Source: a virus (Duplodnaviria; Heunggongvirae; Uroviricota; Caudoviricetes). From it: a DNA stretch of 64,000 nucleotides. Position 1 is the stretch's first letter; each line of letters opens with the position of its first letter. The stretch lies in IMG/VR virus record IMGVR_UViG_3300028887_000069, positions 52,898 through 116,897 of that record; one strand, 5' to 3'. The notes beneath the pieces are model-generated. The model did not search any database, was not told the origin of the DNA, and worked only from the letters and a program-made list of their open reading frames with translations. Below are positions 42,059 to 63,777 of the stretch, piece by piece. The translations under genes and the position numbers were made by a program.

Positions 42059-42074
42059 AGACACGATTGTGTCT
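42059..42074 (+). repeat. AGACACGATTGTGTCT inverted-repeat motif (6-bp arms, GATT centre); 8 copies, all in the same orientation
   Basis: Copies at 42059, 43414, 50329, 56587, 58559, 60871, 62118 and 63726; the flanks often extend to AATAAGACACGATTGTGTCTTA. Confidence 0.6.
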
Positions 42075-42255
42075 TAGGGGTATGGTTGTTGCCCCTTAAC
42101 ATTTGCAAATATAACACTTTTATTTGGTTCGTGCAAATTTTTAACACTTTCACTTGAACTTTTTTTCCACTTAAAAATAAATTGTTAAAAATTTGTGTAT
42201 GTCAGTTTTATTTCTTACCTTTGCACACGTAACAAACAAAAAGAAAGGAGCAATT

Positions 42256-42588
42256 ATGAAAAAAGTATATTATGGAAGTCTCGACAACGAAATTAAAGAT
42301 GTTGTGCTGACCGACAAAAAGAAACTTGACGGAAAGGAAGGCTATGGCTTCGCTTGTTGGCAATATTGGGTTGATAGGGAAAGAATAGGTCACGACCCTT
42401 GGGGTTTTCCTATCTATGGAAATTCTATAGAGTGCTATGCAGCCATTGGCGATTATTTTGAAAGCAAGGCGGAACGTGACCGTCAAGCCGAAATGATACC
42501 GAAAATCACAGGTCTTTGCGGAGAAAGGAAATACGGTGACACGGTGTCGTATTTCACTTTCACTTGGAAATACGAGGGCAAACGTTAA
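42256..42588 (+). CDS. Small early protein, 110 aa
   Basis: EP+SD+ORF; start trimmed. Confidence 0.45.
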   Translation: MKKVYYGSLDNEIKDVVLTDKKKLDGKEGYGFACWQYWVDRERIGHDPWGFPIYGNSIECYAAIGDYFESKAERDRQAEMIPKITGLCGERKYGDTVSYFTFTWKYEGKR

Positions 42589-42672
42589 AAATTTGTGTAT
42601 GTCAGTTTTATTTCTTACCTTTGCACACGTAAACAACAAACAAAGTATAACAATTAAAAAAAGGAGTACACT

Positions 42673-43359
42673 ATGAACTACAATGAAATCTTGCAAAACG
42701 AATATAATAAAGCAGTAAAAGATGTTGCCGATGCGAAATTCAACTCCACATTTCATCGTGGAATATTCGGTTTTATGAACGGCAAAGGGTGGACGGTTAC
42801 GAGTTTTGGCGATAGCAGTATATATTTCTATGGTGCAAGTCGCTTGTTCCGCTTTTACGCTCATCATTTCACAACCGACAAGGCGTGGACTTTGAGCGAG
42901 AGAGTGCAAATTAATTTTGAAAATTACTCGTGGAAAGAGGTGTATTCGTACCCATATACGAGGAATTGCAGTATCACTGATGTTAAAGTTTCCGAGTTTG
43001 ACAAGTTTTTCAAAAATGTAGCAGATAAAATAAGTAAAGAGCCGAAACTCAAACCTTATCGCACATACAGAGAGAGGGAACGAGAGTTTGATAAATATAT
43101 AGTCAGCGAAACATATTACGGATATGGCGCACCTGAACCAATTAGAAAGGAATTTGACAACTTGGAGGATGCAAAGAAATTTGCGTATGAGTATGCGGAT
43201 GAGAAATGTAAGAGGGGAAAGGAAAGAAATGATAGCACAAGCCGTTACTATTTCTCTTCACCGATTGATGCAACCAAAGAATGCCCCTCAAAAATATACG
43301 CTTGGAAATACTATGACTATAACGAATACCCATATTATGTGTATATTGAGGGTTGTTAA
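42673..43359 (+). CDS. Early protein, 228 aa
   Basis: EP+SD+ORF. Confidence 0.45.
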   Translation: MNYNEILQNEYNKAVKDVADAKFNSTFHRGIFGFMNGKGWTVTSFGDSSIYFYGASRLFRFYAHHFTTDKAWTLSERVQINFENYSWKEVYSYPYTRNCSITDVKVSEFDKFFKNVADKISKEPKLKPYRTYREREREFDKYIVSETYYGYGAPEPIRKEFDNLEDAKKFAYEYADEKCKRGKERNDSTSRYYFSSPIDATKECPSKIYAWKYYDYNEYPYYVYIEGC

Positions 43360-43457
43360 AAATTTGGTGGATTGAAAAAACTTTCTTACCTTTGCAAACG
43401 TAACATTCAAATAAGACACGATTGTGTCCTTATATAAACAAATTAAAAGAAACAACT

Positions 43458-44162
43458 ATGAAACACTACATTTATTTCAAGGGTCACGAAGTTTTGCAAG
43501 GATTTTTCGGTTCTTGCATTAACAACAGAGAGTGGTATGAGGGGTTGACGGTTGTTGGGGATTTTATTTATGAACGATTGCAAAAAGGAGAGGTGGATGC
43601 ACGTTTTGGCGGTGGTAACAACCCTATTGTTTTGGGAAAAGACTACACCCTCTTTGACAAGCGTATAGTTGATATGGAGTGGCGTGATATGACACCGAGT
43701 GAAAAACGCAAATACAACAAGGTGCTGAAAGATAACAACCTTTGTTTCAAAGTGCATAAAATGGTTGGAAAAACTGTCTTTGGGGATGAGTACACAAGGG
43801 AGTGTGAGGTGCTTTGTTGGGCAGACACCGACAAAATGCCCATCAGCGTGAACGGCAAAGTTATGACCTATGCGGAGTTCAAGAAACTGACCTTTGGCGA
43901 GAATATGAACGTGGTTAATTCGTGGGATAATGGGTATTCTCATTGGGGCAGTGAGACAAACAAAATGGAGAGTGTATATAGACTGCTGAACAATATTTGT
44001 GCCGAGCATACGGAGGATGCAAACGACCAAATAAACACGACTTGGAAAGGTGGAAAGGTGCATTGTGGGGAGTTGTGGACGTGGCAGTTTGACGAACACG
44101 GAGCATTGAAGTTGAGTTTGACCGAGAAAGAGTTTCATCATTCAGTTGTAAGCAATACATAG
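43458..44162 (+). CDS. Early protein, 234 aa
   Basis: EP+ORF; the AGACACGATTGTGTCC hairpin sits in the 5'UTR. Confidence 0.45.
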   Translation: MKHYIYFKGHEVLQGFFGSCINNREWYEGLTVVGDFIYERLQKGEVDARFGGGNNPIVLGKDYTLFDKRIVDMEWRDMTPSEKRKYNKVLKDNNLCFKVHKMVGKTVFGDEYTRECEVLCWADTDKMPISVNGKVMTYAEFKKLTFGENMNVVNSWDNGYSHWGSETNKMESVYRLLNNICAEHTEDANDQINTTWKGGKVHCGELWTWQFDEHGALKLSLTEKEFHHSVVSNT

Positions 44163-44195
44163 TTTTCATAGGGATAATAGGTTAATGGTTGGAAA

Positions 44196-44227
44196 CCTCA
44201 CGTTGGAGAGCGTGGGGTTTTTTTTAT
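44196..44227 (+). terminator. Rho-independent terminator
   Basis: cctcacg-ttggagag-cgtgggg followed by T8. Confidence 0.7.
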
Positions 44228-44419
44228 TTGTTAAAATTCTTGCGTAATCCAAAAATAAGCGTTATATTTGCACACGTTAAGGGGTGAGAAAGGTACATCA
44301 ATTATCTGCAACAAACGGAGAAAACTGCCAATAATTTGAAATGTTAAAAATTTGTGTATGTTAATATTATTTCTTACTTTTGCAAACGTAAAACAAACAA
44401 AAGGAAAGGAGAACAGACC

Positions 44420-44653
44420 ATGAAGAAAGTAAACAAAAGAATGTACGTGACATTCACGATAGGGAACGTTGTATTGGGTGACAGAAAGGTTGCCTTTGCT
44501 TGCAAGAATGAAGAGGAAATGAGAGAGGTATCGGCAGAGGTTTACTCCTTTGACGGAGTAAGCAATATCCGTTGGAGAAAATCGTCAGCACCGAAAGATA
44601 GGGAGATATATGAGTTTGGGGATTTGTACGACTGCAAAAAGTGGTTGAAATAA
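44420..44653 (+). CDS. Small early protein, 77 aa
   Basis: EP+SD+ORF; start trimmed. Confidence 0.45.
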   Translation: MKKVNKRMYVTFTIGNVVLGDRKVAFACKNEEEMREVSAEVYSFDGVSNIRWRKSSAPKDREIYEFGDLYDCKKWLK

Positions 44654-44746
44654 ATTGTTAAAATATTTTGTCAGTCCAAAAACATTTCATACCTTTGCAA
44701 ATACCAATTCAAACAAAGTATAACAATCTAAAAGAAAGGAACACCT

Positions 44747-45145
44747 ATGAAAAAGAACACACTCAAATCATTCTGCAAGAAAACCCTCAACCTCAACAAG
44801 AAAATGCACGATGCACTTGTTGCAATGGTGAACGAGAATGGCGGTCTTATCCGCACTGAAAGCAATGTGCTTAAAGGCAATGTCAAAGACGATGTATATG
44901 GGTTTGTCTTTGACGAGGAAACCGAAATGACGGTTGAACACCCTATTGTTGCAGTTGCCACTTGGGAAAACGGCACTGTGCTTGGAGTGCTTTTTGACTT
45001 CACCGATGGCAACACCACTTGGGAGGGTGAGAGTGACGAGGATATTTTGGAAGATGACGGTTGGTATTCGGTTGATGGCGGTGCAGTATTGCAGAACGCC
45101 ACACTCTATAATCTTTGCGAAACCCTTTGGCAGTACGCAAAATAA
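44747..45145 (+). CDS. Small early protein, 132 aa
   Basis: EP+SD+ORF. Confidence 0.45.
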   Translation: MKKNTLKSFCKKTLNLNKKMHDALVAMVNENGGLIRTESNVLKGNVKDDVYGFVFDEETEMTVEHPIVAVATWENGTVLGVLFDFTDGNTTWEGESDEDILEDDGWYSVDGGAVLQNATLYNLCETLWQYAK

Positions 45146-45149
45146 ATTG

Positions 45150-45189
45150 TTAAAATGCTTGGTGGATTGAAAAATTAATCTTACCTTTG
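45150..45189 (+). promoter_or_regulatory. Early promoter of the same family
   Basis: ttaaaatgcTTGgtggattgaaaaattaatctTAccTTTGcaagcgtaaac. Confidence 0.65.
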
Positions 45190-45239
45190 CAAGCGTAAAC
45201 AACAAACAAGTTATTAATCATTAAAAGAAAGGAAACACT

Positions 45240-45713
45240 ATGGAAAAGAAACACATTGTACATCTGAGTTATTCAACCTACGTTGATGTTGAGGTTATCG
45301 CACACGACAGCGTGTCCGTTGAGGATGTTATCAATATGGCACGTGAGAAAGTGGCGAACAACAACGAGAAGATAAACAAGGAAATCATTGAGAACCTTTG
45401 CGAGGATGCAAACTACATTGCGGACACCGAAAACCTTTTCAAGACCAAGAACCAAGCGTATGACGCCCTTTGCGAGAGGGTGGAACTTGCAGGCGGTTAC
45501 TTGTGCATAAAAAAGGAGTGGCGTCCTACAATCAAGATTGACGAGTATGATGAGGGAAAAATGCAGAGCGTGACGGTCAAGTCGCTTTTCCTTATGCACG
45601 ATGATAGCAGTCCGTTGCAGATAATTGACGAGAACGATGAGCGTTGGGATGTGGACGATTACCTCTTCAAAGAGGACATTGAGGAACTTTGGTCGCTCCT
45701 AAACGAAAACTAA
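45240..45713 (+). CDS. Small acidic early protein, 157 aa
   Basis: EP+SD+ORF. Confidence 0.45.
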   Translation: MEKKHIVHLSYSTYVDVEVIAHDSVSVEDVINMAREKVANNNEKINKEIIENLCEDANYIADTENLFKTKNQAYDALCERVELAGGYLCIKKEWRPTIKIDEYDEGKMQSVTVKSLFLMHDDSSPLQIIDENDERWDVDDYLFKEDIEELWSLLNEN

Positions 45714-45805
45714 ATGTTAAAATGTTTGGTGGATTGAAAAAATAATCTTACCTTTGCAAACGTAAAGTTAAAACAAAGTATAACAATTAAAGAAAGGAGC
45801 AAACT

Positions 45806-45991
45806 ATGAAGAAAAAGTATTCAGTACGCATTTATCTCCACACTTTTGTTGATATGGAGGTGGAGGCAGAGAACAAGAAAGAGGCTCAAGAAATTGCAAG
45901 TTACACTGATGAATATGATATGGAGCAGGTGATGGCAAATATGGTGCCTTGCAACGAGGGCATTGAGGACATTGAGGTTGTGGAACTCTAA
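45806..45991 (+). CDS. Small early protein, 61 aa
   Basis: EP+SD+ORF. Confidence 0.4.
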   Translation: MKKKYSVRIYLHTFVDMEVEAENKKEAQEIASYTDEYDMEQVMANMVPCNEGIEDIEVVEL

Positions 45992-46011
45992 AAGATAAGG
46001 AGGATTAAGAT

Positions 46012-46260
46012 ATGACACTTAAAGAGTTAAAGAAAAAGACAAGTGTACGTTGGTGCAGTTGCAGTCAATATGAGGTAACTATTACCTATCGTGGCAAGAC
46101 CTACAAATGCAAATCAAACAACTCCCTTGCTTGGGACAGACTTGATGATGAGAACTATCCCGACAATTACCGAGTGGGATTTTACACCAACAAAGGAGCG
46201 TGGCAGTCCTTTTACAACGAATGCCTTTTCAAGAACTTTATCGGAAAGTACAAATATTAA
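46012..46260 (+). CDS. Small early protein, 82 aa
   Basis: SD+ORF. Confidence 0.45.
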   Translation: MTLKELKKKTSVRWCSCSQYEVTITYRGKTYKCKSNNSLAWDRLDDENYPDNYRVGFYTNKGAWQSFYNECLFKNFIGKYKY

Positions 46261-46351
46261 ATGTTAAAAATTTGGTGGGTTGAAAAAATAATCTTACCTT
46301 TGCAAGCGTAAAGTTAAAACAAAGTATAACAATTAAAGAAAGGAGAACAAT

Positions 46352-46453
46352 ATGAAAGCAATTAACGCACTGAGAGACTATCTTGTATCGAACAACTTTA
46401 TCGTGCCGTTTAACGCACTCACCAAAAAGCAACTGCTGAACACCAAGTGTTAA
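46352..46453 (+). CDS. Peptide, 33 aa (manual call)
   Basis: EP+SD+ORF. Confidence 0.3.
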   Translation: MKAINALRDYLVSNNFIVPFNALTKKQLLNTKC

Positions 46454-46537
46454 AAATTTGGTCAATCCAAAAACATTGCATATTTTTGCACACGTAAGTT
46501 AATCAAAAGTCAAATTAAAAAAAGAAAGGAACATAAA

Positions 46538-46762
46538 ATGGAAATTAAAGGAACACACACAACCGACTACGTGACAAAGGAAGAGGTCAGCACCCTCACT
46601 ATTGACGAACTTGTGGACTATATCAACGGTTGCAAGGACGCAATCAAGGGGGCAAGGGGAGAGGCGGAACGCTATCGTGGATTGTATGACTTTACAAGCA
46701 AGTCAGCGGAAACCGCAGAAAAGAAACTCAAAGCAATCAAAGAGGTAGTAAACATTATGTAA
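46538..46762 (+). CDS. Small early protein, 74 aa
   Basis: EP+SD+ORF. Confidence 0.45.
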   Translation: MEIKGTHTTDYVTKEEVSTLTIDELVDYINGCKDAIKGARGEAERYRGLYDFTSKSAETAEKKLKAIKEVVNIM

Positions 46763-46788
46763 AACTAAAAAAGAAAGGAGCAAGCACT

Positions 46789-46938
46789 ATGAAAAAAGTA
46801 GTATTCAAGAAAGACGGAACAATCCAATACAATGACGGAAACGAGACAATGACTTTCACCACCGTTTCCGCACTTGTCAACCACCTCAACGCAAACAAGG
46901 TTATGTTGAAAGTTGAGGATTGCGAGACCGAAGAATAA
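46789..46938 (+). CDS. Small protein, 49 aa (manual call)
   Basis: SD+ORF, with a terminator downstream. Confidence 0.35.
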   Translation: MKKVVFKKDGTIQYNDGNETMTFTTVSALVNHLNANKVMLKVEDCETEE

Positions 46939-46966
46939 CCCCCTCCAAATTGGCATAATGGGTTTT

Positions 46967-46996
46967 GACCTCACGTTGGGAAACGTGGGGTTTTTT
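46967..46996 (+). terminator. Rho-independent terminator
   Basis: cctcacg-ttgggaaa-cgtgggg followed by a T-tract. Confidence 0.7.
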
Positions 46997-47190
46997 ATTG
47001 CTCCCCTCATTACATTTGCAAATATACCACTTATATTTGGACTACGCAAATTTTTAACATTTCCGCTTGCACTTTTTTCGCCCCTTGAAAAAAAAAAATG
47101 TTAAAATGCTTGTGTATATGAAAAATTAATCTTATCTTTGCAAGCGTAAAATTAAAACAAAGTATAACAATTAAAGAAAGGAGTAACACA

Positions 47191-47988
47191 ATGAAAGCAT
47201 ACAAAGGTTTTAGAAAAAAAAGTGATGGTACACTATGGTGTCGTAATTTCCAATACAAAGTCGGCAAGACATACAAGTTCGATTGGGAACCTATGATATG
47301 TGAACAGGGTTTCCACGCTTGTCATGAACCACATCAGTGTTGGTCATTCTACCCTAACGACGGGAAAAATGTGTACTACGAGGTTGAATGTGGTGGGAAG
47401 ATAGTTGAAAGTAGCGGGATTGACGGCAAGTTCGTCTGCACTGAAATTAAACTAATAAGAGAGATACCTGCACCTGAAAACAAGTTTGATGATTGTTGGT
47501 GTTTCCAAGATGGATATGCAATGGTGAAATTGGATGGTAAATGGAACTGTATCAATACGGAAGGAAAATACCTATCCGAGCAGTGGTGGGATGATTGTTG
47601 GTGTTTCCAAGATGGATATGCAGTGGTGAAATTGGATGGTAAATGGAACTTTATTGACACGAAAGGAAAATACCTATCCGAGCAGTGGTGGGATTGGTGT
47701 GGTGATTTCCGCAATGGTTATGCAATAGTGGAGTTGAATGGTAAATGTAATTTCATCAGTAGTGATGGAAAATACCTATCCGAGCAGTGGTGGGATTGGT
47801 GTTGGGATTTCCGCAATGGTTATGCAATGGTGGAGTTGAATGGTAAATGGAACCTTATCAATACAGAAGGAAAATACCTATCGGAGCAGTGGTGGGATTG
47901 TTGTTTGAATTTCTGCAATGGTTATGCAGAGGTGAAATTGAATGGCAAATGGTGTAAAATAAATACAAACGGAGAAATAATAAAATAA
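47191..47988 (+). CDS. Tandem-repeat protein with five WG-like (KWN) beta repeats, 265 aa
   Basis: About five 33-aa repeats of the form NGYAxVKLDGKWNxINTEGKYLSEQWWDxCxxF, encoded by near-identical ~99-bp DNA repeats; EP+SD upstream. Confidence 0.5.
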   Translation: MKAYKGFRKKSDGTLWCRNFQYKVGKTYKFDWEPMICEQGFHACHEPHQCWSFYPNDGKNVYYEVECGGKIVESSGIDGKFVCTEIKLIREIPAPENKFDDCWCFQDGYAMVKLDGKWNCINTEGKYLSEQWWDDCWCFQDGYAVVKLDGKWNFIDTKGKYLSEQWWDWCGDFRNGYAIVELNGKCNFISSDGKYLSEQWWDWCWDFRNGYAMVELNGKWNLINTEGKYLSEQWWDCCLNFCNGYAEVKLNGKWCKINTNGEIIK

Positions 47989-48127
47989 TGAAAGCATACA
48001 AAGGCTTTAATAGATATTAAGATGGTACATTCTATTTGTTAAAAATTTGGTAGATTCAAAAACTTTGCTTACCTTTGCACACGTAAACAACAAACAAAGT
48101 TATTCACATTAAAAGAAAGGAACCCCT

Positions 48128-48475
48128 ATGGAAAAGATTAAAGAAAACGCAGTGGCGGAGTTTGAGAAAGTTATCAAAAACTCGTGGACTTATGGCAAAA
48201 TGACCGAAGAAGAAAGAAATCGTCTTTGGGAGAAAATGGGCGACTTTGTCCGTCGAGGACACGTCAGCGGTTCGTTTGAGCAAAGGTGGCGTACAATGCA
48301 AGCAATGTATGGTATGTTTCTCGCAGGACTTGGAAACGTCAATAACCCTAATTGGCGTGACAAGGCAGAAACCCCAACAGAGAAAGCGACTGACATTGAC
48401 ACGATGGTTGAAACCTATCTTGGACTGACTTGTGCCGAGAAAGACGAATTTCTGTCACGTATAGAGTGTAACTGA
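48128..48475 (+). CDS. Small early protein, 115 aa
   Basis: EP+SD+ORF. Confidence 0.45.
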   Translation: MEKIKENAVAEFEKVIKNSWTYGKMTEEERNRLWEKMGDFVRRGHVSGSFEQRWRTMQAMYGMFLAGLGNVNNPNWRDKAETPTEKATDIDTMVETYLGLTCAEKDEFLSRIECN

Positions 48476-48566
48476 AATGTTAAAAATTTGCAAGGTTCAA
48501 AAAAGTTTCATACCTTTGCACACGTAAGTTAATCAAAAGTACAACTAATAAAGAAAGGAGAACATT

Positions 48567-48740
48567 ATGGCAAAAGGAAAAAAATGCGTGGTTATAGGAA
48601 ACACCGCTTGGGGATATACCTCAACACCAAAGACGTGCAACTCCATAGCAGAGGCGGTTAGAGAGGGCAAAATGTGGTTCGCCTACCGTATCTTTGACAC
48701 TTGCGGAAACCTTATTAAAAGAGGATTTGGGGAGGATTGA
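48567..48740 (+). CDS. Small protein, 57 aa (manual call)
   Basis: EP+SD+ORF. Confidence 0.35.
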   Translation: MAKGKKCVVIGNTAWGYTSTPKTCNSIAEAVREGKMWFAYRIFDTCGNLIKRGFGED

Positions 48741-48768
48741 CCTATGGTTAGATTTTTGGAGGATTTAA

Positions 48769-49582: not shown

Positions 49583-50323
49583 ATGGAAAAAATTAACTAC
49601 AAAGGATTTACAATCACAATTGACAATGACGAATATCCCTCGAACCCTCGTGAATGGGATGAGGTAGGCACTATCTACTCCAATCACCGAGACTATAACC
49701 CTGACGATTGCCGTATCAATACACTTATGGAAAAATACGATGTGGACAGTCTCGCTGACCTTACGGAGAAACTGACCGAGAACAAGGTGCCGTTTCTGCC
49801 CATATATGCCTACATTCACAGCGGTATCTCACTGAGTACATCCGACGACAAATATCCGTTCAACGACCGTTGGGATAGCGGACTTTTCGGACTGATTGTC
49901 GGTGACAAGAAAAAGTTTGAGGAGATTTATGTCTTTGGCGACATCAAGGACTATCTGCGTGACCAAGTGGAGTTGCTGAACAAATATTACAACAACGACT
50001 TCTATTGGTATGGTGTTGAGGATGATGAGGGTGACACGATAGACATTTGTGGTGGGTTTGGTTCAGAGGAGGACGCACTGAACGAGGCAAAGGCAAGCGT
50101 GGATGCGTGGTACGAGGACAACGAGAATGTGCTTGACAACCCATCGATACCAACAGACGAACTGAAACGAGTTTTCTTTGAATACGTCACCTCTTCACCG
50201 CAGTGGGGCAGGGAACTGATGGACAAGGTGGATGAAAAAACACTCCGTACTTTTCTCAAAGGACAGTTGAAAGAAATGCTGACAAAGGAGGTGGTTGCAA
50301 AGGAGTTTGCCGAGTGGGGCTGA
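49583..50323 (+). CDS. Acidic early protein, 246 aa
   Basis: EP+SD+ORF; strongly acidic. Confidence 0.45.
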   Translation: MEKINYKGFTITIDNDEYPSNPREWDEVGTIYSNHRDYNPDDCRINTLMEKYDVDSLADLTEKLTENKVPFLPIYAYIHSGISLSTSDDKYPFNDRWDSGLFGLIVGDKKKFEEIYVFGDIKDYLRDQVELLNKYYNNDFYWYGVEDDEGDTIDICGGFGSEEDALNEAKASVDAWYEDNENVLDNPSIPTDELKRVFFEYVTSSPQWGRELMDKVDEKTLRTFLKGQLKEMLTKEVVAKEFAEWG

Positions 50324-50432
50324 CAATAAGACACGATTGTGTCTTAATCTAACTGAAAGTTAAACTTTGTTAAACGTTTTGTAAATCCAGAAAATATTTG
50401 TATCTTTGCACACGTAAAACAACAAGAATGCT

Positions 50433-50933
50433 ATGCGGAAGAAATACACACACCCACCTATGAGCGTCATATCCTTTTCACCTACAACACGTTTGTTGGA
50501 AATGGTGAAAGGGTACGCAAACGCTGAACCGAGAGAGAATTTTAGCGAGGATGAACTGAACGCCTTTCTCCTACATAGAAAGGTATGCCGAGAGGTGCTT
50601 GACTTTCAAGCGACACACCCCGAAATGCCACTCTATGCTATTCTGTCTATTGGTATAACGACAGGTGCGTTCAAACACTCCGACTTTGTAAGAGGGTATC
50701 GCCACTTTGACAAAGAACGTGCCGAGTTTGTCCTTGAAATGGGCAAGTGGTACAACGGATATTTAGGATTGGGCAAGAAACCGTCCGACACTACATATAG
50801 AATTGTAAACAAGTTCTACAAGACTACTTCACAATCCAAAAGAGAGTTCAAGTACAGAGTGAAGAAAGCGTATGAACTTGACGGAAAGCGAGGACATTAT
50901 CCTAAACTTTGCCAATCAATAGGTTGCTTATAG
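50433..50933 (+). CDS. Early protein, 166 aa
   Basis: EP+ORF; no SD; a terminator follows. Confidence 0.4.
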   Translation: MRKKYTHPPMSVISFSPTTRLLEMVKGYANAEPRENFSEDELNAFLLHRKVCREVLDFQATHPEMPLYAILSIGITTGAFKHSDFVRGYRHFDKERAEFVLEMGKWYNGYLGLGKKPSDTTYRIVNKFYKTTSQSKREFKYRVKKAYELDGKRGHYPKLCQSIGCL

Positions 50934-52736: not shown

Positions 52737-52925
52737 ATGGCAAAAACATTCACAGTTAGCGTTCTTTATGAAACGAGAGTAAATATCACCGTCACCGCAG
52801 AGGACAGAGACCAAGCAAGGGAACTCGCCTATGCCGAAATGGATGCAATGGACGATGCGGACGTGGCAAAGGAAATGTTTGACAACCGTGACCTTTTGGG
52901 AACGGACATTGAAGAAAACGACTAA
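52737..52925 (+). CDS. Small acidic protein, 62 aa
   Basis: EP+SD+ORF. Confidence 0.45.
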   Translation: MAKTFTVSVLYETRVNITVTAEDRDQARELAYAEMDAMDDADVAKEMFDNRDLLGTDIEEND

Positions 52926-53258: not shown

Positions 53259-53501
53259 ATGACAACAATACTGACAAACAAATACGGAAAAACGACCTAT
53301 TCATATCCTCACACCATCGAGGGTATCGGTATCGTGGAAATGAACGGCACAAACGAGACAATGCAGACGCACATCTGCAAACCGAACTCAATTAAAACAC
53401 TATACACGCTGAACGCCTATTGGTGGGATTTGGACACCATCAATGACCTCATAGGCAAAAACACAAAGGACATCAAGGAAGCCTTTAGAAACGCTTGGTA
53501 A
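53259..53501 (+). CDS. Small early protein, 80 aa
   Basis: SD+ORF; start trimmed; a terminator follows. Confidence 0.45.
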   Translation: MTTILTNKYGKTTYSYPHTIEGIGIVEMNGTNETMQTHICKPNSIKTLYTLNAYWWDLDTINDLIGKNTKDIKEAFRNAW

Positions 53502-56332: not shown

Positions 56333-56584
56333 ATGTACGAAAGAGAATACAAAATCAAGGACATCGAGTTCAAGAACAACGGAAAGGTTAAGGACAGAGA
56401 GGTGATAGTCACCCTTGACAACGACACCGAAATCCATATCACATCCTGCTATGAGAGTTGGCAACAGTGGGGAGGAACAAGAGACGAGTTGGGGACAACG
56501 GTGGACGTTGCAGAGTATGCAAACGATTGGTTGCACGGCATTGGGGAAATCCCTTGTGAAGTGTACGACTTCATAGACGAATAA
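56333..56584 (+). CDS. Small early protein, 83 aa
   Basis: SD+ORF. Confidence 0.45.
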   Translation: MYEREYKIKDIEFKNNGKVKDREVIVTLDNDTEIHITSCYESWQQWGGTRDELGTTVDVAEYANDWLHGIGEIPCEVYDFIDE

Positions 56585-56631
56585 TAAGACACGATTGTGT
56601 CTTGAACAATCTAAAAAGAAAGGAGAACATT

Positions 56632-56898
56632 ATGGATAAGAGATATATCATAAAACAAAGTATGTGGCGTTACCTACGCGACTGCCACTGCCTTACGATT
56701 GAGGGCAAGGAATGTGACGAGGAGGTCGATTGCCTTGAACTGATGGGCAACAAACTCTACTATGACGAGGGCAACGAAGAGATAAAGGTAATAAACGGTC
56801 TTGACGGTCGTGAATACTTTTGGAGCGAACTCAACGAGGACGAGCAGAACCAACTCATTGACGCTTTCGAGGACTACTACACCACGTACAAAGATTAA
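56632..56898 (+). CDS. Small early protein, 88 aa
   Basis: SD+ORF; start trimmed. Confidence 0.45.
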   Translation: MDKRYIIKQSMWRYLRDCHCLTIEGKECDEEVDCLELMGNKLYYDEGNEEIKVINGLDGREYFWSELNEDEQNQLIDAFEDYYTTYKD

Positions 56899-56990
56899 AT
56901 GTTAAAAATTTGTGTACGTGAAAAATCTTTCTTACCTTTGCATACGTCAATTCAAACAAACAATAACCTATTAAAGAAAGGAGAAAAACT

Positions 56991-57149: not shown

Positions 57150-57175
57150 CCCATAGAAAAGAAAGGAAACGCACA

Positions 57176-57748
57176 ATGAGTACAACAATGACAAAATCAA
57201 CCCCTTGGTATAACCCATTTACCTTGACTTATCCGAATTCACTCTATGGAGTTGAAATACACAACATTGTCTTCTACAAGGACGGAAAGGTCGTTGCTAC
57301 AACAAAGTGGTTCACGAACAACAACGAGTTCAGACTTGTCGTACTGCCCTTTGACGTGAAACGTGCCAATAAACTTAACCTTGACCGCAAAGACGCTTTC
57401 ACTATCAAACCCCAAAATGGTTGGTGCGATGGTTACGACCTCTACATACACGCTGACCTTATACCCTCTCTTAAAACGCTTGGTCGCATTGATGGACGTA
57501 AGACTTGGTATAACACCGAGACGCACGAAACCTTTGAAATTACACTGCACGGACAAAAAGACGGTGACACCGAGATAAAAGACCACACGCTCCGTTTCGA
57601 CTGCAACTATGAGTTCACCGACACGGACGAATACAAGAAATGCGTCAAACTCTGCAAGGATATGAAAGAGACTTGCGGTGCTGACATAAGCGAGTACCGA
57701 ATGCACGAAATACTGCAACACTACAACATCACGAAGAAGAGAAAGTAA
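57176..57748 (+). CDS. Early protein, 190 aa
   Basis: SD+ORF, with a terminator downstream. Confidence 0.45.
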   Translation: MSTTMTKSTPWYNPFTLTYPNSLYGVEIHNIVFYKDGKVVATTKWFTNNNEFRLVVLPFDVKRANKLNLDRKDAFTIKPQNGWCDGYDLYIHADLIPSLKTLGRIDGRKTWYNTETHETFEITLHGQKDGDTEIKDHTLRFDCNYEFTDTDEYKKCVKLCKDMKETCGADISEYRMHEILQHYNITKKRK

Positions 57749-57772
57749 CCCATAGTTCACTCCTTTTATATG

Positions 57773-57808
57773 TGCCGTCTGCCCTTGATTGGGCGGGCGG
57801 TTTTTTAT
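57773..57808 (+). terminator. Rho-independent terminator
   Basis: GC-rich imperfect hairpin ccgtctgccc...gggcgggcgg followed by T6. Confidence 0.55.
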
Positions 57809-57946
57809 TTGTTAAAAATTTGGCCGTTCCAAATATAATCGTTATATTTGCAAACGTTAAAGAGCAAAAAACCACTTAACCCTTGCATACGCAAAGATTA
57901 TTTTTTTTCATATAGATTAAAATAAATTGTTAAAAATTTGGTCCAT

Positions 57947-57968
57947 TCAAAAATTTATCTTACCTTTG
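57947..57968 (+). promoter_or_regulatory. Early promoter of the same family
   Basis: aaaaaTTTGgtccattcaaaaatttatctTAccTTTGcaaatgtcaa. Confidence 0.65.
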
Positions 57969-58017
57969 CAAATGTCAATTAAGATAAAACATTAACCTAT
58001 AAAAGAAAGGAGACAAT

Positions 58018-58494
58018 ATGAACTACAAGAAATTCTTTGACCGCACCTGTTACCACGTTGAAACCATCGACGGCAAGAAGTACGTACACATTGACGGTTA
58101 CGTGTACAACAACGGAGACGGAAATATGCTGACACAGTTTATCGGTGCCACCATATCCGTTGAGGAACTGCAAAAGACAAACGACCGTTTTGAGGACGTT
58201 GAAGACCTTTTTATGCGAACCTACGATGAAGTGTCCGACAAGGAGATTGAGACCTATTTCCGCAACATCAAGGAGTTCCCTATGGATATGGTGACAGAGG
58301 AAATCCCAAACGGTTGGTACGTGGATAAGAATTGGCACTCTGTGGCACAGTCGCTCTGCACTGACCTTGACAATGACGTGAACGATGTCGCAAGGCGTCT
58401 CAAGGCGTATGCGGAAGACAACAACCTCACGATAGAGGAAGTGGACGATATGTGTTGGGAAAACTCCTCCAATATGTTTAACGAGATAATGTAA
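58018..58494 (+). CDS. Early protein, 158 aa
   Basis: EP+SD+ORF. Confidence 0.45.
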   Translation: MNYKKFFDRTCYHVETIDGKKYVHIDGYVYNNGDGNMLTQFIGATISVEELQKTNDRFEDVEDLFMRTYDEVSDKEIETYFRNIKEFPMDMVTEEIPNGWYVDKNWHSVAQSLCTDLDNDVNDVARRLKAYAEDNNLTIEEVDDMCWENSSNMFNEIM

Positions 58495-58616
58495 GTTTTT
58501 TGTTAAAACGCTTGCACATATCAAAAATTAATCTTACCTTTGCAAGTGTAATCAAATAAGACACGATTGTGTCCTACATAAACAAAGTATAACAATCTAA
58601 AAGAAAGGAGAACACT

Positions 58617-59189
58617 ATGGCAAACATCGCAAACACACTCTATCGTATCGTTGGAGACGATGCAATCCTCACAAAGGTTGAAAATTCATTAAAGGTTGGA
58701 ATGTCACTGCAAGAGGTGTTGTCCTCACTCGGTTGCAAGGACTTCAAAGGTTACGCAAAGGGTGAAATCGTATGGATTGAGAATGACCCCGAGGGTCTTT
58801 GGATTGACCTACACGCTGACACTGCGTGGAACGAGAACCCCGACTTTATCAACGCTCTCAAAAAGGCGATAGACTGCATCGTGGGGTATCACTGCGAGGA
58901 GCCTGGTTGCGACTACTACGCAACAAACATTTCAGACGCAATTTGGGGCGAGTACGTTGCCGATGGCATAGACGGAACAACCGAGTACTACAAGACCTTT
59001 GAGGAAATGAAAGCGAACATTGTGGAAAGTCTCGCACTTGAACTTGCCTTTGAGGAGAATGACGGTCACGATGACGCATTCAAGACCTTTGACGGTATGA
59101 AAGATTGGTTGGAGAACTACTACACCAAACACAAGGACTACGACCCAATCACAATCCATCACTTTGACATTATTGACCCAATCATATAA
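58617..59189 (+). CDS. Acidic early protein, 190 aa
   Basis: EP+SD+ORF; the hairpin motif sits in the 5'UTR. Confidence 0.45.
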   Translation: MANIANTLYRIVGDDAILTKVENSLKVGMSLQEVLSSLGCKDFKGYAKGEIVWIENDPEGLWIDLHADTAWNENPDFINALKKAIDCIVGYHCEEPGCDYYATNISDAIWGEYVADGIDGTTEYYKTFEEMKANIVESLALELAFEENDGHDDAFKTFDGMKDWLENYYTKHKDYDPITIHHFDIIDPII

Positions 59190-59270
59190 ATTGTTAAAAA
59201 ATTTGGTCAATCCAAAAATTAATCTTACCTTTGCACACGTAACAAACAAATTAAAAGAAAGGAGACAACT

Positions 59271-59609
59271 ATGAACAAGAGAAAATTCTTTTTCGCACCT
59301 GCCTACTATGAATGGCACTTGACCGATGAGAGAGGAAACCTCATTCATGTTATGGCAGACCCTGCCGAGGAGACGTGCCACGAGGACGGAACACCTTGTA
59401 CCTTTGAAGAAGTGGAGGATATGTGTGCAAACGACCTTGAATGTGCCGACCGCACGTATGAAGAGGGCGAGGGTTACAACGGACATTATCTTGAAGACCC
59501 ACTCACAGAGGAGGAAACCGAGGAAGCGGCAAATGTTATGGCAACCGCGCTCTACAACTACTACTGCGTGGAGAACGAGGAGACCGATGCAAATTCACTT
59601 GAGTTCTAA
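59271..59609 (+). CDS. Acidic early protein, 112 aa
   Basis: EP+SD+ORF. Confidence 0.45.
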   Translation: MNKRKFFFAPAYYEWHLTDERGNLIHVMADPAEETCHEDGTPCTFEEVEDMCANDLECADRTYEEGEGYNGHYLEDPLTEEETEEAANVMATALYNYYCVENEETDANSLEF

Positions 59610-59684
59610 ATGTTAAAAATTTGCGTATGTCAAAAAAACTTCTTACCTTTGCATACGTAACAAATTAAAAGAAAGGAGAATACT

Positions 59685-59987
59685 ATGAAAATGAAAGGTT
59701 ATTATTGGACTGATGACGACACAATGTGTGCGTTCTTCGGTGATGTGCATAAAGAAAAAAACCTCACAATCGCCCGTGAGAGTGAATATCACTCCGAAGA
59801 TGACGAGGTGGTGATTATAGATGTCTTTTGGGATGACGATGACAATATGACCGAGGGTCATTCCATCAATCCCTCTACCCTCAAGTACTATGAGAAGAAA
59901 TGTAAAATTGACCCCAACATCACCCGTGAGGAATATGACGAGATTGTCACACTTACAAGGGCAAAGGCAAAAGAAACCACTGTTTAA
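59685..59987 (+). CDS. Small early protein, 100 aa
   Basis: EP+SD+ORF. Confidence 0.45.
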   Translation: MKMKGYYWTDDDTMCAFFGDVHKEKNLTIARESEYHSEDDEVVIIDVFWDDDDNMTEGHSINPSTLKYYEKKCKIDPNITREEYDEIVTLTRAKAKETTV

Positions 59988-60002
59988 CTTTAAGGTAGCA
60001 CT

Positions 60003-60197
60003 ATGACAAACATTGAACTTATTAGAACGGAACTTAATGAGACAAGAACCCTCATTGACACTCTCTGCGACAAAATCAATACAATGATGTCAATGTCAAA
60101 CGACTGTCTCGACTTCAGAGACGCAAAGGACAAACTGTCCGAGGTGGAAACAGAACTCGTTGAGAAGTACAACGAATACGCAACACGTAACAACTAA
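60003..60197 (+). CDS. Small coiled-coil protein, 64 aa
   Basis: ORF; weak SD. Confidence 0.35.
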   Translation: MTNIELIRTELNETRTLIDTLCDKINTMMSMSNDCLDFRDAKDKLSEVETELVEKYNEYATRNN

Positions 60198-60221
60198 CAT
60201 AAAAAGAAAGGAGACAAAACT

Positions 60222-60602
60222 ATGAATAAAACAAATCTGTCAAAAGAGGAAATCAATGTATTGACCGAGAAAGCAAACGACCTTGTGAGAAAGGAAACCG
60301 AAATCATTAATGCGGCACAAAAAGGTATTATATCCCTGCTTTCCAAGTGCGAAAACAACGAAATCACCTTGCCCGTCGGCAATGATGATGACCTTTCAGT
60401 CTTTGACTGCGACTGCAACGAATACCGTTCCATAGACAAGGTGAAACTTGTGAAATACAAAAGTGCCGTTGATTGCAATGGCAATAGCGACAATACCTTT
60501 GACGTTCCTGTCCTTGTCTCAAATGATATACCGTATCAGATGTACGAGACATCGGAAACACCCATACAGATACTGTCACGTATGGTAAACGAACTTGATT
60601 AA
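60222..60602 (+). CDS. Small early protein, 126 aa
   Basis: SD+ORF. Confidence 0.45.
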   Translation: MNKTNLSKEEINVLTEKANDLVRKETEIINAAQKGIISLLSKCENNEITLPVGNDDDLSVFDCDCNEYRSIDKVKLVKYKSAVDCNGNSDNTFDVPVLVSNDIPYQMYETSETPIQILSRMVNELD

Positions 60603-60629
60603 GTAACCAACTAAAAACAATCAATCTAT

Positions 60630-60827
60630 ATGGAAACAAAGAGAGAATACAAGATAGCGTTCAACCGCTCACGCAAGACCTATACAATCCGTCAGTACGA
60701 CAACGGCAAACTCGTCACAAAGTACCGCACCTACCCTCAAGGCAAGGACTACTCGGAGAATTGGACACAGAACGACATAGCGAACTATTTGCGTTATGCA
60801 AACGGAGACTATTTCATCGTAAAATAA
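60630..60827 (+). CDS. Small protein, 65 aa
   Basis: ORF only. Confidence 0.35.
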   Translation: METKREYKIAFNRSRKTYTIRQYDNGKLVTKYRTYPQGKDYSENWTQNDIANYLRYANGDYFIVK

Positions 60828-60850
60828 ACCATTAAAAAACATTACACACT

Positions 60851-61066
60851 ATGGAACAGAACAACACATTAGACACGATTGTGTCTCCTGCACAGATAAC
60901 GGACGTGGACACCCTCTGCCATTGCGTAGGATGTGACCTCAACACACAGGAGAAAGCACAGACAAGGATTGAGATTATCCTTAACTACCTCATGGAATGG
61001 AACGTCATCAAGGACTATGACGCTGACAGACTTGATTGGATATTCAGCGACGAGGAAACCTATTAG
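60851..61066 (+). CDS. Small protein, 71 aa
   Basis: ORF; contains the AGACACGATTGTGTCT motif in frame (DTIVS). Confidence 0.35.
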   Translation: MEQNNTLDTIVSPAQITDVDTLCHCVGCDLNTQEKAQTRIEIILNYLMEWNVIKDYDADRLDWIFSDEETY

Positions 61067-61173
61067 AAAAAAAAATTCATATTAATTGTTAAAAAATTTG
61101 GTAGATTCAAAAAAACTTCTTACCTTTGCATACGTCAATTAACAAAAAGGTTTAACTAAAACACATTATCACT

Positions 61174-62310
61174 ATGGAACAGAAAAACGACAATTTCATG
61201 CAGAGCGTTATGAACGCAATCAACGGAAACAACACTATGGTATCGGTCAATACCGATGCGAAACCCCTCGCCTGGAACGGAGTGATGGGCTGCAAGTCCT
61301 TCAGCACTCCCGTCACCGTCTCCGAGGCCGCAGAGGAGGTTGGGGCGAACTATGAGGTCAAGAAGCACCACATGGTCGCTATCACTGACGAACTCTATGA
61401 CGCCATCATCAACGGCACTCCCATCACGGAGGCAACGTTTACAAAGGGCTGCATCGTCTCATCCCACATGGCAACCATGCGTGAGGACAACGGACATATC
61501 CTTGGTTGTGTCGGCAAGGACTACGGCGTGATTCAGAACGCCAAGGCTCTCGAGTTCCTTAACATGATTACAAGCGGTGAGATTGACGGCACTGAGAAGG
61601 CAGTCATCGAGACCGCAGGCATACTCGATGGTGGCGCTCGTTTCTACATGACCGCCAAAATGCCCGAGAACATAACAATCCCAGGTGACCGTTTCGGTAT
61701 CGAGGACTACATCGTCTTCACCACCTCGCATGACGGAACGAATGCGGTTCAGGCATTCTTCACCCCGATTCGTGTGGTCTGCAAGAACACCCTCAACTAC
61801 GCCATGAAGAGCGCCAAGAACAAACTCGTCTTCCGCCACACCTCCCGCGTCAACGAGCGCATGGATTGGAACAACGAGGAGAACCGCAGAATGGCTGTGC
61901 AGACCCTGCAGATGCACAAACACTTCAAGGAGGCATTCGTCAACGACCTCATCGCCATGCAGAACATCAAGATAAGCGGTGACACCGACATCGCCAAATT
62001 CTGTGGCAAACTCTTCGCAGACGAGAAGGAACTCAACCTGCTTGCCAAGGCGAACTACAACGCCGACTCCGTTGAGGAACTGTCCACCCGCAAAAAGAAC
62101 CTCATCCGTGCCATGCAAGACACGATTGTGTCCGGAGTGGGTCAGTCCGAACATCAGAACACGGGTCTGTGGCTGCTTAACGGTGTGACCTCATACTTCC
62201 AGAACACGAAGCCGTGGAAGACCGAGGAGGACAAGTTCGACGGCATCATGGGCGGTGACGCTTCACGCAAGGTTCAGAAAGCACGTGAACTCATCTACGA
62301 AATGGTATAG
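61174..62310 (+). CDS. DUF932-like (phage/plasmid-related) protein, 378 aa, encoded in a GC-richer segment
   Basis: N-terminal ...AKPLAWNGVMG...TVSEAAEEVGANYEVKK... pattern recalls the DUF932/TIGR03299 family. EP upstream; strong terminator downstream. Confidence 0.4.
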   Translation: MEQKNDNFMQSVMNAINGNNTMVSVNTDAKPLAWNGVMGCKSFSTPVTVSEAAEEVGANYEVKKHHMVAITDELYDAIINGTPITEATFTKGCIVSSHMATMREDNGHILGCVGKDYGVIQNAKALEFLNMITSGEIDGTEKAVIETAGILDGGARFYMTAKMPENITIPGDRFGIEDYIVFTTSHDGTNAVQAFFTPIRVVCKNTLNYAMKSAKNKLVFRHTSRVNERMDWNNEENRRMAVQTLQMHKHFKEAFVNDLIAMQNIKISGDTDIAKFCGKLFADEKELNLLAKANYNADSVEELSTRKKNLIRAMQDTIVSGVGQSEHQNTGLWLLNGVTSYFQNTKPWKTEEDKFDGIMGGDASRKVQKARELIYEMV

Positions 62311-62342
62311 TACTTCCCCTTCATAGTTATCCCTTTCACGGA

Positions 62343-62390
62343 AAGACGGACTGCACAACCAAGTGCAAGTCCGTCTTTCTTTTATGTATG
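62343..62390 (+). terminator. Strong rho-independent terminator after the DUF932-like gene
   Basis: agacggactgcac-aaccaa-gtgcaagtccgtct followed by a T-tract. Confidence 0.7.
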
Positions 62391-62611
62391 TGTTTGGAAT
62401 GAATTGTTAAAAATTTGCATATTCCAAATAAAAGCGTTATATTTGCAAGCGTTAAAGCGGATGGAATATACCCCTGTCATTCCATCCTGTATGTTAATTA
62501 ACATTTTTTATGAAATTACATTTGGTCAGTCCATACATTCTTCATACCTTTGCAAATGTAAACAAAGGACAGACAACATTATCGTATAACCACTTAAAAA
62601 AGGAGAATATC

Positions 62612-62911
62612 ATGAAGACATTCAATTTCGTCAGCGGGTTGGACGAGGAAACCCGTGAAAGACATTCAATCAAACGTGACGACAACGGCTACTACCTCGT
62701 TCCCGACAGCGAGTCATCAATACTGATGGAATCCAAATCACCTATCATGAAAGACGCAAACAGGGTGGTCTACGCTCTCGAGAGCGTCAAGTTGGGCAAA
62801 CTCTCCACCAAGATGTTCAACACCCTCTCAGAGGCAAAGGAACACCTGAAGGGCGCACTCGACGAGAACGATTGGGACATCATCCCGCTTGAAGGGGAGG
62901 GCGTGTATTAA
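62612..62911 (+). CDS. Small protein, 99 aa
   Basis: EP+SD+ORF; start trimmed. Confidence 0.45.
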   Translation: MKTFNFVSGLDEETRERHSIKRDDNGYYLVPDSESSILMESKSPIMKDANRVVYALESVKLGKLSTKMFNTLSEAKEHLKGALDENDWDIIPLEGEGVY

Positions 62912-63009
62912 CAAATCTTTCAAATAAAGATTTGCGGGTTCCGAAAACACTTCATACCTTTGCATACGTAAACGAACGAATAAATAACAATCTAAAGATA
63001 TACAGTACC

Positions 63010-63507
63010 ATGGAAAAAACAAAGAAGGAAAAACGAACAAAGAACGTGCTTGACAATATGTTCAAGATGTCGATACTCGAGACAACGTTCACACACAAGG
63101 CCGTCAACAAGGTCAGGTGCACAATCGCATTCAAACCCTCGGATGTCCTCAACCCCATAGAGAAGGGCTACGACACCATCATGGAAAGACTCGCCAAGGG
63201 TCACCCCGAAATCAAGGTCAAGCGCAGCGTCTTCGACGGTCCGACTTTCTTCATCCACGCCGACGCCACCTGCCACCCCGACGACGTCTATAGGGAATCC
63301 ACGGGTATGCACATAGCAGAGACCAAGGCACGGCTCAGACTCAACAACTTCATGTACGACGTCGTGACCGAATACGCCGAGGAAAAAAAGAAGGAACTCA
63401 AGTCAGTCCTCCTTTGGCAGGAGGAATACCTCCTCAGAGTCAAGAACAACGACGAACACCTCGCCGACCTCTACAACTACCACGTAACCCCCAAGACAAA
63501 CCAATAG
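63010..63507 (+). CDS. Hypothetical protein, 165 aa
   Basis: EP+ORF; start trimmed. Confidence 0.4.
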   Translation: MEKTKKEKRTKNVLDNMFKMSILETTFTHKAVNKVRCTIAFKPSDVLNPIEKGYDTIMERLAKGHPEIKVKRSVFDGPTFFIHADATCHPDDVYRESTGMHIAETKARLRLNNFMYDVVTEYAEEKKKELKSVLLWQEEYLLRVKNNDEHLADLYNYHVTPKTNQ

Positions 63508-63511
63508 AGAC

Positions 63512-63727
63512 ATGGCGACAGTGACATTCAGTTGGTCAACCGTCCTCCTCACAGTGATAACGGTAATCCTCATCATAGGAACCTACCTCACGGGCGTATG
63601 GTGGACAGACAACAACAGGAAAAAGAGAATCGTCTCGAGAATAATCCTCGCAGTCATAGCCCTCACCTTCATCACGGGCATCTACGTCTCAATCAACCTT
63701 TGGCAGCAACTCCTCGCCACCAATTAG
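63512..63727 (+). CDS. Small membrane protein, 71 aa
   Basis: Two TM segments. Confidence 0.4.
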   Translation: MATVTFSWSTVLLTVITVILIIGTYLTGVWWTDNNRKKRIVSRIILAVIALTFITGIYVSINLWQQLLATN

Positions 63728-63777
63728 ACACGATTGTGTCTCATCCAAGTTATAATAACCTTTAAAACAATAAAGAT

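Follow-up and report, generated by a model that had tools for sequence, protein, structure and literature searches.

The conserved inverted repeats of phage phiC31 and the KorB and KorA operators of RK2 are multiple conserved palindromes of 13 to 17 bp that lie between genes, at variable distances from promoters, and answer to one regulator. We know of no reported strand bias at the centers of these palindromes. The stoperators of the cluster A mycobacteriophages L5, Bxb1, and TipsytheTRex are likewise many near-identical short sites, about one per 2 to 3 kb, that sit in short intergenic spaces beside promoters, are oriented with transcription, and are clade specific (PMC9283540). Here we analyze a 16-bp palindrome, RGACAC-GATT-GTGTCY, that is found between small genes and twice within genes in a 64,000-nt stretch of viral DNA assigned to the Caudoviricetes (IMG/VR record IMGVR_UViG_3300028887_000069, positions 52,898 to 116,897; hereafter, the window). 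Comparison with related phages marks this motif as a genuine, selected, and clade-specific cis-element, and since it is unchanged among them it appears to be a real signal that is read by a specific factor.

The motif resembles several described systems in part. Like the phiC31 repeats and the KorB and KorA operators it is a dispersed palindrome; the regulators are known in those systems. As with stoperators, its sites are repeated in short intergenic gaps and oriented with transcription, but a stoperator is an asymmetric site of 13 bp to which a monomeric immunity repressor binds, and such sites occur across the whole genomes of temperate phages, whereas the motif is a 16-bp palindrome within one block of about 22 kb. 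The gene array in which it lies matches in architecture the promoter-early stem-loop (PeSL) cassettes of T4-type phages, with which it shares fast-evolving small orphan genes, a strong conserved host-type promoter, a stem-loop just past the previous stop codon, and mosaic junctions (PMC2839356, PMC4122927). PeSL stem-loops, however, are G/C-rich terminators of variable sequence that always accompany a promoter (PMC2839356, PMC4122927), whereas the motif is one invariant sequence, lacks a T-tract, occurs with or without a promoter, and is also found inside genes. A PeSL-like order of motif and then promoter occurs at 50329 in the window and at several places in related phages; elsewhere the motif stands alone, after promoters, or in genes, and the true PeSL analogs here are units of a terminator plus a promoter. 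The motif fails at least one defining feature of the stoperators, the phiC31 repeats, and the KorB operators, and it is filed here as a dispersed phage regulatory repeat that belongs to no named family.

Copies of the motif in the window

An earlier note, made from the letters of the window alone, had described eight copies in a fixed orientation, and all eight were recovered on the plus strand. Five are exact copies of AGACACGATTGTGTCT (42059, 50329, 56587, 60871, and 63726), and three carry C instead of T at position 16, giving AGACACGATTGTGTCC (43414, 58559, and 62118). The relaxed pattern RGACACNNNNGTGTCY returned the same eight sites against a shuffle expectation of 0.01, a strong enrichment, and no copy was present in the first 42 kb of the window with up to three mismatches allowed. 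A contig of the same phage (L001, from Logan SRR9008933) adds 4.6 kb beyond the window and contains a ninth copy (L001:4964) that lies about 184 nt beyond the end of the window, overlaps a stop codon, and is 24 nt upstream of a canonical parS site. The nine copies thus found in the window and L001 fall within 22 kb, and about one gene in five carries a copy. Noncoding DNA makes up 20% of the stretch from 42 to 64 kb, yet it holds six of the eight copies in the window (P = 0.001).

From about 35.7 kb onward the window consists of an array of about 60 small plus-strand genes, nearly all of no known function. Nearly every one of them is preceded by a near-identical standard promoter of the Bacteroidetes type, consisting of TGTTAAAAATTTG, a spacer, the −7 box TACCTTTGCA, and a leader ending in AAAGAAAGGAG. 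The −7 box, in the form TA[CT][CT]TTTG[CT]A, occurs 44 times on the plus strand between positions 35700 and 64000 (e.g., at 43387, 45182, and 58535), and T-tract terminators split the array into units. With respect to these signals, copies were classed as lying after a promoter (PH), alone between cistrons (H), before a promoter (HP), after a terminator (TH), or inside coding sequence. The eight copies in the window are as follows, with L184 denoting one of the related phages introduced below; "UTR" stands for untranslated region.

42059 to 42074, plus strand: exact copy, class TH, 24 nt past the T-tract terminator (42002 to 42035) of gene 41459-41983; a minus-strand TATATTTGCA promoter at 42113 also has it downstream, at about +23 to +38
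43414 to 43429, plus strand: AGACACGATTGTGTCC, class PH, in a 5' UTR, 17 nt past the −7 box at 43387 and 28 nt upstream of the ATG of gene 43458-44162
50329 to 50344, plus strand: exact copy, class HP; gene 49583-50323 ends in TGA 5 nt before it, and the −7 box in the promoter of gene 50433-50933 follows 56 nt after it
56587 to 56602, plus strand: exact copy, class H, intercistronic and without an intervening promoter; gene 56333-56584 ends in TAA 2 nt before it, and the ATG of gene 56632-56898 follows 29 nt after it
58559 to 58574, plus strand: AGACACGATTGTGTCC, class PH, in a 5' UTR, 14 nt past the −7 box at 58535 and 42 nt upstream of the ATG of gene 58617-59189
60871 to 60886, plus strand: exact copy, codons 7 to 12 (L-D-T-I-V-S) of open reading frame 60851-61066, kept in the L184 ortholog (4728)
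62118 to 62133, plus strand: AGACACGATTGTGTCC, within the DUF932 gene 61174-62310, 190 nt upstream of its stop
63726 to 63741, plus strand: exact copy, class H, its first bases completing the TAG stop of the membrane-protein open reading frame 63512-63727, 36 nt upstream of the ATG of 63778-63957, kept in L184 (9187)

Class H comprises the copies at 56587 and 63726 and the ninth copy, L001:4964. The overlap of the 63726 copy with a stop codon corrects the earlier note, which was right that both coding copies are read as D-T-I-V-S and that two copies lie in 5' UTRs. Its proposal that the latter two replace the usual Shine-Dalgarno (SD) spacing did not hold, as they are insertions of about 20 to 25 nt between the −7 box and an otherwise standard leader. 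For the copy at 58559 this is evident from L184, in which the orthologous leader lacks the element; the copies at 43414 and 58559 have about 35 nt of flanking sequence in common. The stem of 8 to 9 bp that had been attributed to the intergenic copies was likewise too general, since the 8-bp stem TAAGACAC/GTGTCTTA is present in just three of the six noncoding copies (42059, 50329, and 56587), the last of which includes a U-G pair. At the L184 ortholog of the 56587 copy (L184:1551) the flanks are the same and the element is flipped, with the center AATC.

Conservation in related phages

DNA from relatives was fetched around homologs of the DUF932 protein. The motif is kept in six related lineages, in which DUF932 is 54 to 76% identical to that of the window, and the loci compared were as follows.

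L059 to L061: DUF932 75% identical, 7 copies in 21 kb
L062 and L063: DUF932 76% identical, 3 copies in L062 (1 flipped) and 1 in L063
L064 to L066 (357-kb contig): DUF932 56% identical, 7 copies in 21 kb
L182: DUF932 73% identical, 2 copies
L183: DUF932 75% identical, 2 copies
L184: DUF932 63% identical, 5 copies
L179: DUF932 54% identical, 4 copies
372-kb IMG/VR contig, five pieces: 9 copies (1 flipped, 1 with the center GAAT)

After ortholog grouping these amount to about 28 distinct sites, of which about 26 are codirectional with genes and 2 are flipped, and most lie 0 to 25 nt past a stop codon. Gene content is almost wholly different between the window and the L059 and L064 lineages, so the positions of the sites are mostly nonorthologous although their sequence is identical. 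On the 372-kb contig every exact copy falls within pieces that are syntenic with one stretch of about 21 to 25 kb; the motif is regional within the genome. The more distant relatives (45 to 53% identity, G+C content of 29 to 35%; L067 to L069, L180, and L181) have no copy and no substitute palindrome. One of these motif-less relatives, a 308-kb contig, carries, from about 2.7 kb downstream of DUF932 onward, genes for Cas6, a Cas7fv-like protein, and Cas3 (L068:10097-16267). By the earlier note, a lack of enrichment or of conservation in related genomes would have counted against the motif, and this is clearly not the situation here, where conservation extends to the nucleotide level inside coding sequence.

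That level of conservation is seen in the DUF932 gene. At the site of the internal copy the family consensus reads D-[TS]-I-E-S-G, and D-T-I-V-S-G occurs in the closest clade alone, with the Glu-to-Val change completing the palindrome. The codons GAC ACG ATT GTG are identical in five lineages of this clade. Identical codons are found at 44 of the 218 amino-acid-identical columns (20%), and four in succession would arise by chance with a probability of about 0.002, which shows that selection acts on the nucleotide sequence itself. Lineages with D-S-V-E-S (L064, L184, and the 372-kb contig) have no internal copy and instead carry one 44 to 64 nt past the DUF932 stop, and L179 has a copy neither inside the gene nor after its stop. 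A regulatory sequence has here overridden a conserved residue and has then been frozen at the nucleotide level.

The anatomy of the motif was examined in 34 distinct sequences. The GACAC and GTGTC arms are each unchanged in 33 of them, the exceptions being L059:1447 and L179:12249. A or G stands at position 1 and T or C at position 16, each independently of the other; the A/C combination, which would be a mismatch in RNA, occurs in 10 of the 34, matching independence. Counted by site cluster, the center is GATT in 24 cases, AATT in 2, and GAAT in 2, and the whole element is flipped at two sites (L184:1551 and L062:2343 with its L006 ortholog). The flanks are A/T rich, often with TA on either side, and pairing between them is not maintained: outer pairs are unpaired in 29 to 68% of sequences. 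Because the five inner base pairs are invariant, they are uninformative about pairing. Overall, 79.1% of cells were paired, compared with 79.0% in shuffles, which gives no covariation signal, and no shuffle or slide control showed selection for pairing outside the invariant core. The hairpin itself, with a 5- to 6-bp stem and a 4-nt loop, is present in the minimum-free-energy fold of all eight window contexts; its calculated energy is −4.8 kcal/mol for the core and −6.4 kcal/mol for the 16-mer, and three of the six stem pairs are G-C.

Beyond the relatives, a scan of 185,579 bacterial species genomes for ATAAGACACGATTGTGTC gave three unrelated single matches, a chance level. Among unrelated IMG/VR contigs with the same 15-mer, L016, L041, and L055 have their own repeat, L033 has a tandem pair, and the rest are single matches; none was informative about a binding factor. 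In one apparently unrelated phage (L036, IMGVR_UViG_3300031463_000004) the identical 16-mer occurs at 1312 and 3601, each copy overlapping the stop of the upstream gene about 22 nt before the next ATG of two tandem paralogous repeat-protein genes, and this pair is most likely one chance match that was duplicated along with the gene. A degenerate 14-base scan of viral sequences was swamped by chance matches, and a metagenome scan with the DUF932 protein gave no match.

How the motif may be read

From sequence analysis alone, readings of the motif as DNA and as RNA are close in probability. The earlier note had proposed an RNA hairpin and, alternatively, an operator recognized by a DNA-binding protein of the phage; both candidates stand, and jointly they take most of the probability, although the hairpin gains no support from covariation. 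We tentatively favor a duplex-DNA operator or roadblock at which a dimeric regulator of the phage would block or repress transcription, with a probability of about 0.4. The clade-specific recognition site would consist of two invariant RGACAC half-sites flanking a 4-bp A/T-rich center, for which GATT is preferred, and a phage-encoded dimer would bind it as duplex DNA rather than as RNA. Such sites would occupy short gaps between cassettes, just after or before promoters and occasionally within genes, and the bound protein would repress or block transcription through one block of about 22 kb in the early, fast-evolving array of small genes.

The pattern of variation points to this reading. The arms remained fixed while synonymous sites diverged heavily (to the 20% codon identity given above), and the center and outer positions vary, which fits a dimer-bound DNA palindrome slightly better than a hairpin. 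The independent choice of purine or pyrimidine at the outer positions is what two separate half-sites would show, and flipped copies stay intact. Several copies are poorly placed for a 3'-end signal, lying behind efficient-looking T-tract terminators (42059, L184:6238, and L018r:7779) or 190 nt inside the conserved DUF932 coding sequence, around whose stop the placement is either/or. Positions turn over, the sequence is fixed, and distant relatives lack the motif, all of which would be expected of a site that coevolves with a binding protein, and the regional restriction of the copies is also consistent with one. Stoperators offer a precedent for many short-intergenic sites oriented with transcription (PMC9283540). 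The phiC31 repeats and the KorB operators of RK2 are other systems known to work in this manner.

A number of observations weigh on the other side. A symmetric dimer would be blind to the orientation of the center, yet GATT or GAAT is on the sense strand at about 26 of the 28 sites, and both coding copies use GATT despite synonymous alternatives. The distance to the promoter is not fixed (40 to 56 nt upstream of the −7 box or 14 to 17 nt downstream of it), unlike that of a classical promoter-proximal operator, and the stoperator precedent is itself imperfect in that those sites are asymmetric, monomer bound, and genome-wide rather than palindromic and regional. No DNA-binding protein was identified in the window or neighboring loci. 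The sole small family common to all motif-bearing neighborhoods (window 53259-53501, L064:4873-5205, and L179:101-478) was considered as a binder and has no recognizable nucleic-acid-binding features. Neither Pfam nor PHROG assigns a function to the genes downstream of the two 5' UTR copies, and the L184 ortholog lacks the 58559 copy, so autoregulation through these copies is not supported. Finally, any DNA palindrome doubles as an RNA hairpin, and the fold forms in every window context.

A hairpin of the sense transcript, with the loop R-A-W-Y, that is read by a phage RNA-binding protein or nuclease is a nearly as probable alternative, and it could serve as a mark for processing or decay at cistron boundaries, in transcription attenuation, or in modification of RNA polymerase as at the boxB/nut sites of lambda. 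In lambda, boxB is a hairpin of about 15 nt with a 5-bp stem that lies in the 5' UTR and directly past a stop codon, in sense orientation and upstream of terminators; its GNRA-like loop is critical, its stem may vary, and a conserved boxA precedes it. The motif is alike in placement and size, with most copies just past a stop or in 5' UTRs, but it is present in nine copies rather than two and its conservation is the opposite, the stem being invariant and the loop variable, which is also the reverse of most protein-bound RNA hairpins. None of its loops (GAUU, AAUU, and GAAU) is GNRA-like, a conserved box upstream or boxA-like flank was not found, and a lambda-type nut site was rejected. The strand bias of the sites argues for RNA, as do the strand-specific preference for G at position 7, which includes both coding copies, and the fit of every center variant, flipped ones included, to R-A-W-Y on the sense strand. 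However, the copies have spread together with a co-oriented flanking leader, so orientation may have been inherited rather than selected and is weaker evidence for RNA than first appears. The motif also fills the slot of T-tract terminators, in that units of motif and then promoter correspond to units of terminator and then promoter, and three copies in relatives precede T-runs. Against this, the core is weak and usually lacks a U-tract: no T-run follows any of the nine copies in the window and L001, and the three in relatives are out of 34 distinct sequences, so an intrinsic terminator was rejected. A terminator scan listed the motif solely on the minus strand, through its A-rich flank, and found canonical T-tract terminators elsewhere in the array. 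An A-C mismatch at the closing pair in 29% of sequences, the copies behind strong terminators, and the copy in conserved coding sequence, where a 3'-end signal would cut the message short, also speak against a hairpin. An Rfam search at an E value of ≤1 gave no relevant match and no compensatory pair change was seen, which led us to discard a structured RNA family.

The remaining explanations are less probable and treat the motif as a DNA element of another kind. It is unlikely, though conceivable, that the motif is a mobile or recombinogenic mini-palindrome, that is, a crossover or insertion site at which a site-specific or single-strand-specific recombinase shuffles cassettes by way of a directional center, or mere conserved microhomology of the PeSL type. 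Recombination sites with a directional center are known in lox/FRT and attC. An attC site is an imperfect palindrome of 57 to 141 bp with R and L boxes that follows each cassette and works with an integrase and attI, and such a site was rejected here because the conserved unit is 16 to 20 bp, serves about one gene in five, and accompanies cassettes with their own promoters, and because no integrase was seen in the window or loci. Repetitive extragenic palindromic (REP) elements are short palindromes past stop codons that occur in many host-chromosome copies with a conserved 5' tetranucleotide and a Y1 transposase (RAYT); the motif has no copies in bacterial genomes, merely A/T-rich flanks with no GTAG-type flank, and no Y1 transposase in the window, and it is not a REP element. 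In favor of recombination, homology between relatives begins or breaks off at the edge of the motif in four of the six intergenic sites compared (L059, L064, L062, and the 372-kb contig), although this mosaic pattern is suggestive only: short gaps are where junctions must sit in any case, and alignments always end at a conserved motif, which leaves the coincidence without significance. The clean insertions of about 20 to 25 nt into otherwise standard leaders, the single center and direction across sites in a co-oriented array of orphan-gene cassettes, and the whole-element flips are also consistent with a mobile element, and PeSLs of T4-type phages mediate shuffling of this kind (PMC2839356, PMC4122927). 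On the other hand, one well-resolved cassette insertion beside a copy used another microhomology (ACACC), 16 to 20 bp is short for the core site of a recombinase, neither an integrase nor a Y1 transposase was seen nearby, about four genes in five lack a copy, and the nucleotide-level selection on the coding copy suggests a function for the phage itself. A TnpB/IS605-like element at 16 to 17.7 kb has no copy at its ends, there being none outside 42 to 64 kb with up to three mismatches, and the motif was rejected as the ends of that element. A related and equally doubtful idea links the motif, as a directional DNA element, to the cassette array and the adjacent parS sites, where it would act as an integron-like crossover site or as a polar boundary or roadblock; in the latter form it might limit or orient the spreading of ParB over the early region, an idea that rests on the spacing of motif and parS in four lineages, where the last motif copy lies 7 to 30 nt upstream of parS and none follows in the available 2 to 6 kb. 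No ParB gene was seen in the window. Less probable still is a promoter, as hairpin or duplex, for a phage-specific polymerase whose transcripts would start a few bases downstream, in the manner of the early hairpin promoters of phage N4. All location classes would fit it (past a stop codon, behind a terminator, in tandem with promoters of the host type, or in the upstream gene), always facing the next gene and at 17 to 42 nt from its ATG where no host-type promoter intervenes; the motif stays with the downstream gene in three of four mosaic comparisons and is clade specific and invariant in sequence, like phage polymerase promoters. Yet the window revealed no phage RNA polymerase, nearly every gene already has a strong host-type promoter, no initiation region is conserved downstream, and a flipped copy occupies the same slot. 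Moreover, the virion polymerase of crAss-like phages has no detectable early promoter motif (bioRxiv 10.1101/2020.03.07.982082).

Genomic setting and implications

The parS sites are a feature of these loci in their own right. The canonical chromosomal parS palindrome TGTTTCACGTGAAACA is found near DUF932 in all relatives examined, the motif-less ones included, except L062, L179, L182, and L183. It occurs at L001:5004-5019 and L001:5435-5450, about 224 and 655 nt beyond the 3' end of the window, and at L184:9667 and 10107, L059:2691, 5217, and 16327, and L064:3106, 6096, and 15199; most of these copies are perfect, and a few have one or two mismatches. Like the motif, parS is a 16-bp palindrome that is dispersed over a region and sometimes lies inside genes, but the sequences are unrelated. 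The motif was rejected as a parS/ParB centromere site, which has the sequence TGTTNCACGTGAAACA; true parS sites, perfect at L001:5004 and 5435, are separately present nearby.

The element most likely represents a huge Bacteroidales phage, given that homologs of its DUF932 protein (61174-62310) lie on contigs of 200 to 372 kb, several of them in IMG/VR, that the closest DUF932 homologs in the cultured collection are from crAss-like phages (30 to 36% identity), and that its promoters are of the Bacteroidetes type; no virion gene falls within the window. The window had no nucleotide match in the cultured-phage collection. A megaplasmid was rejected, as the Hodor elements (PMC12934698) come from Bacillota and are unrelated. 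Among the genes of the left 34 kb are those for a ClpB-like ATPase, an NAD-dependent ligase, a helicase, a D12 methyltransferase, a TnpB-like protein, and a sigma-70-like protein. The TnpB/Cas12f-like protein (16015-17712, plus strand) adjoins a protein with sigma-70 region 2 (17805-18821, plus strand); it has a partial homolog of 79% identity in L179, and another copy lies beside DUF932 in L067. Within the array, gene 47191-47988 (DUF7666 with WG beta-repeats) contains three copies of CCTATC[CG]GAGCAGTGGTGGG about 100 to 200 nt apart (47571-47896), which reflect protein repeats.

A second class of promoter, gtgtTATATTTGCAaatgttaaaggg, follows each T-tract terminator and is succeeded by a variable segment of 40 to 60 nt and then by the standard promoter.

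39383, 41253, 44263, 49122, 53597, 55498, 57843, and 62438, plus strand: gtgtTATATTTGCAaatgttaaaggg promoters
35691, 36757, 40540, 42113, 47026, and 51018, minus strand: gtgtTATATTTGCAaatgttaaaggg promoters that fire back into terminators

These units may be short antisense or small-RNA units. Of the array genes in the window, 70% have an SD-like core 5 to 18 nt upstream of the ATG, as do 43% in L184, against 7 to 10% in the other relatives compared (L059, L064, L179, L067, and L069). Bacteroidetes mostly lack SD sequences (PMC3155529), and the strong AAAGAAAGGAG leaders look like a lineage-specific gain in a phage with Bacteroidetes-type promoters.

If the motif proved to be a recombination site or a ParB-linked element, it would bear on how accessory genes are shuffled or on the use of host partition machinery, and the presence of host-type parS sites on a huge phage merits its own study. 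The huge phages of the Bacteroidales in gut and rumen have yet to be cultured, and their gene regulation is essentially unknown. The motif defines a regulon of about nine sites with a testable binding sequence, predicts a coevolving factor, and provides a clean and conserved handle on one regulatory layer of these phages.

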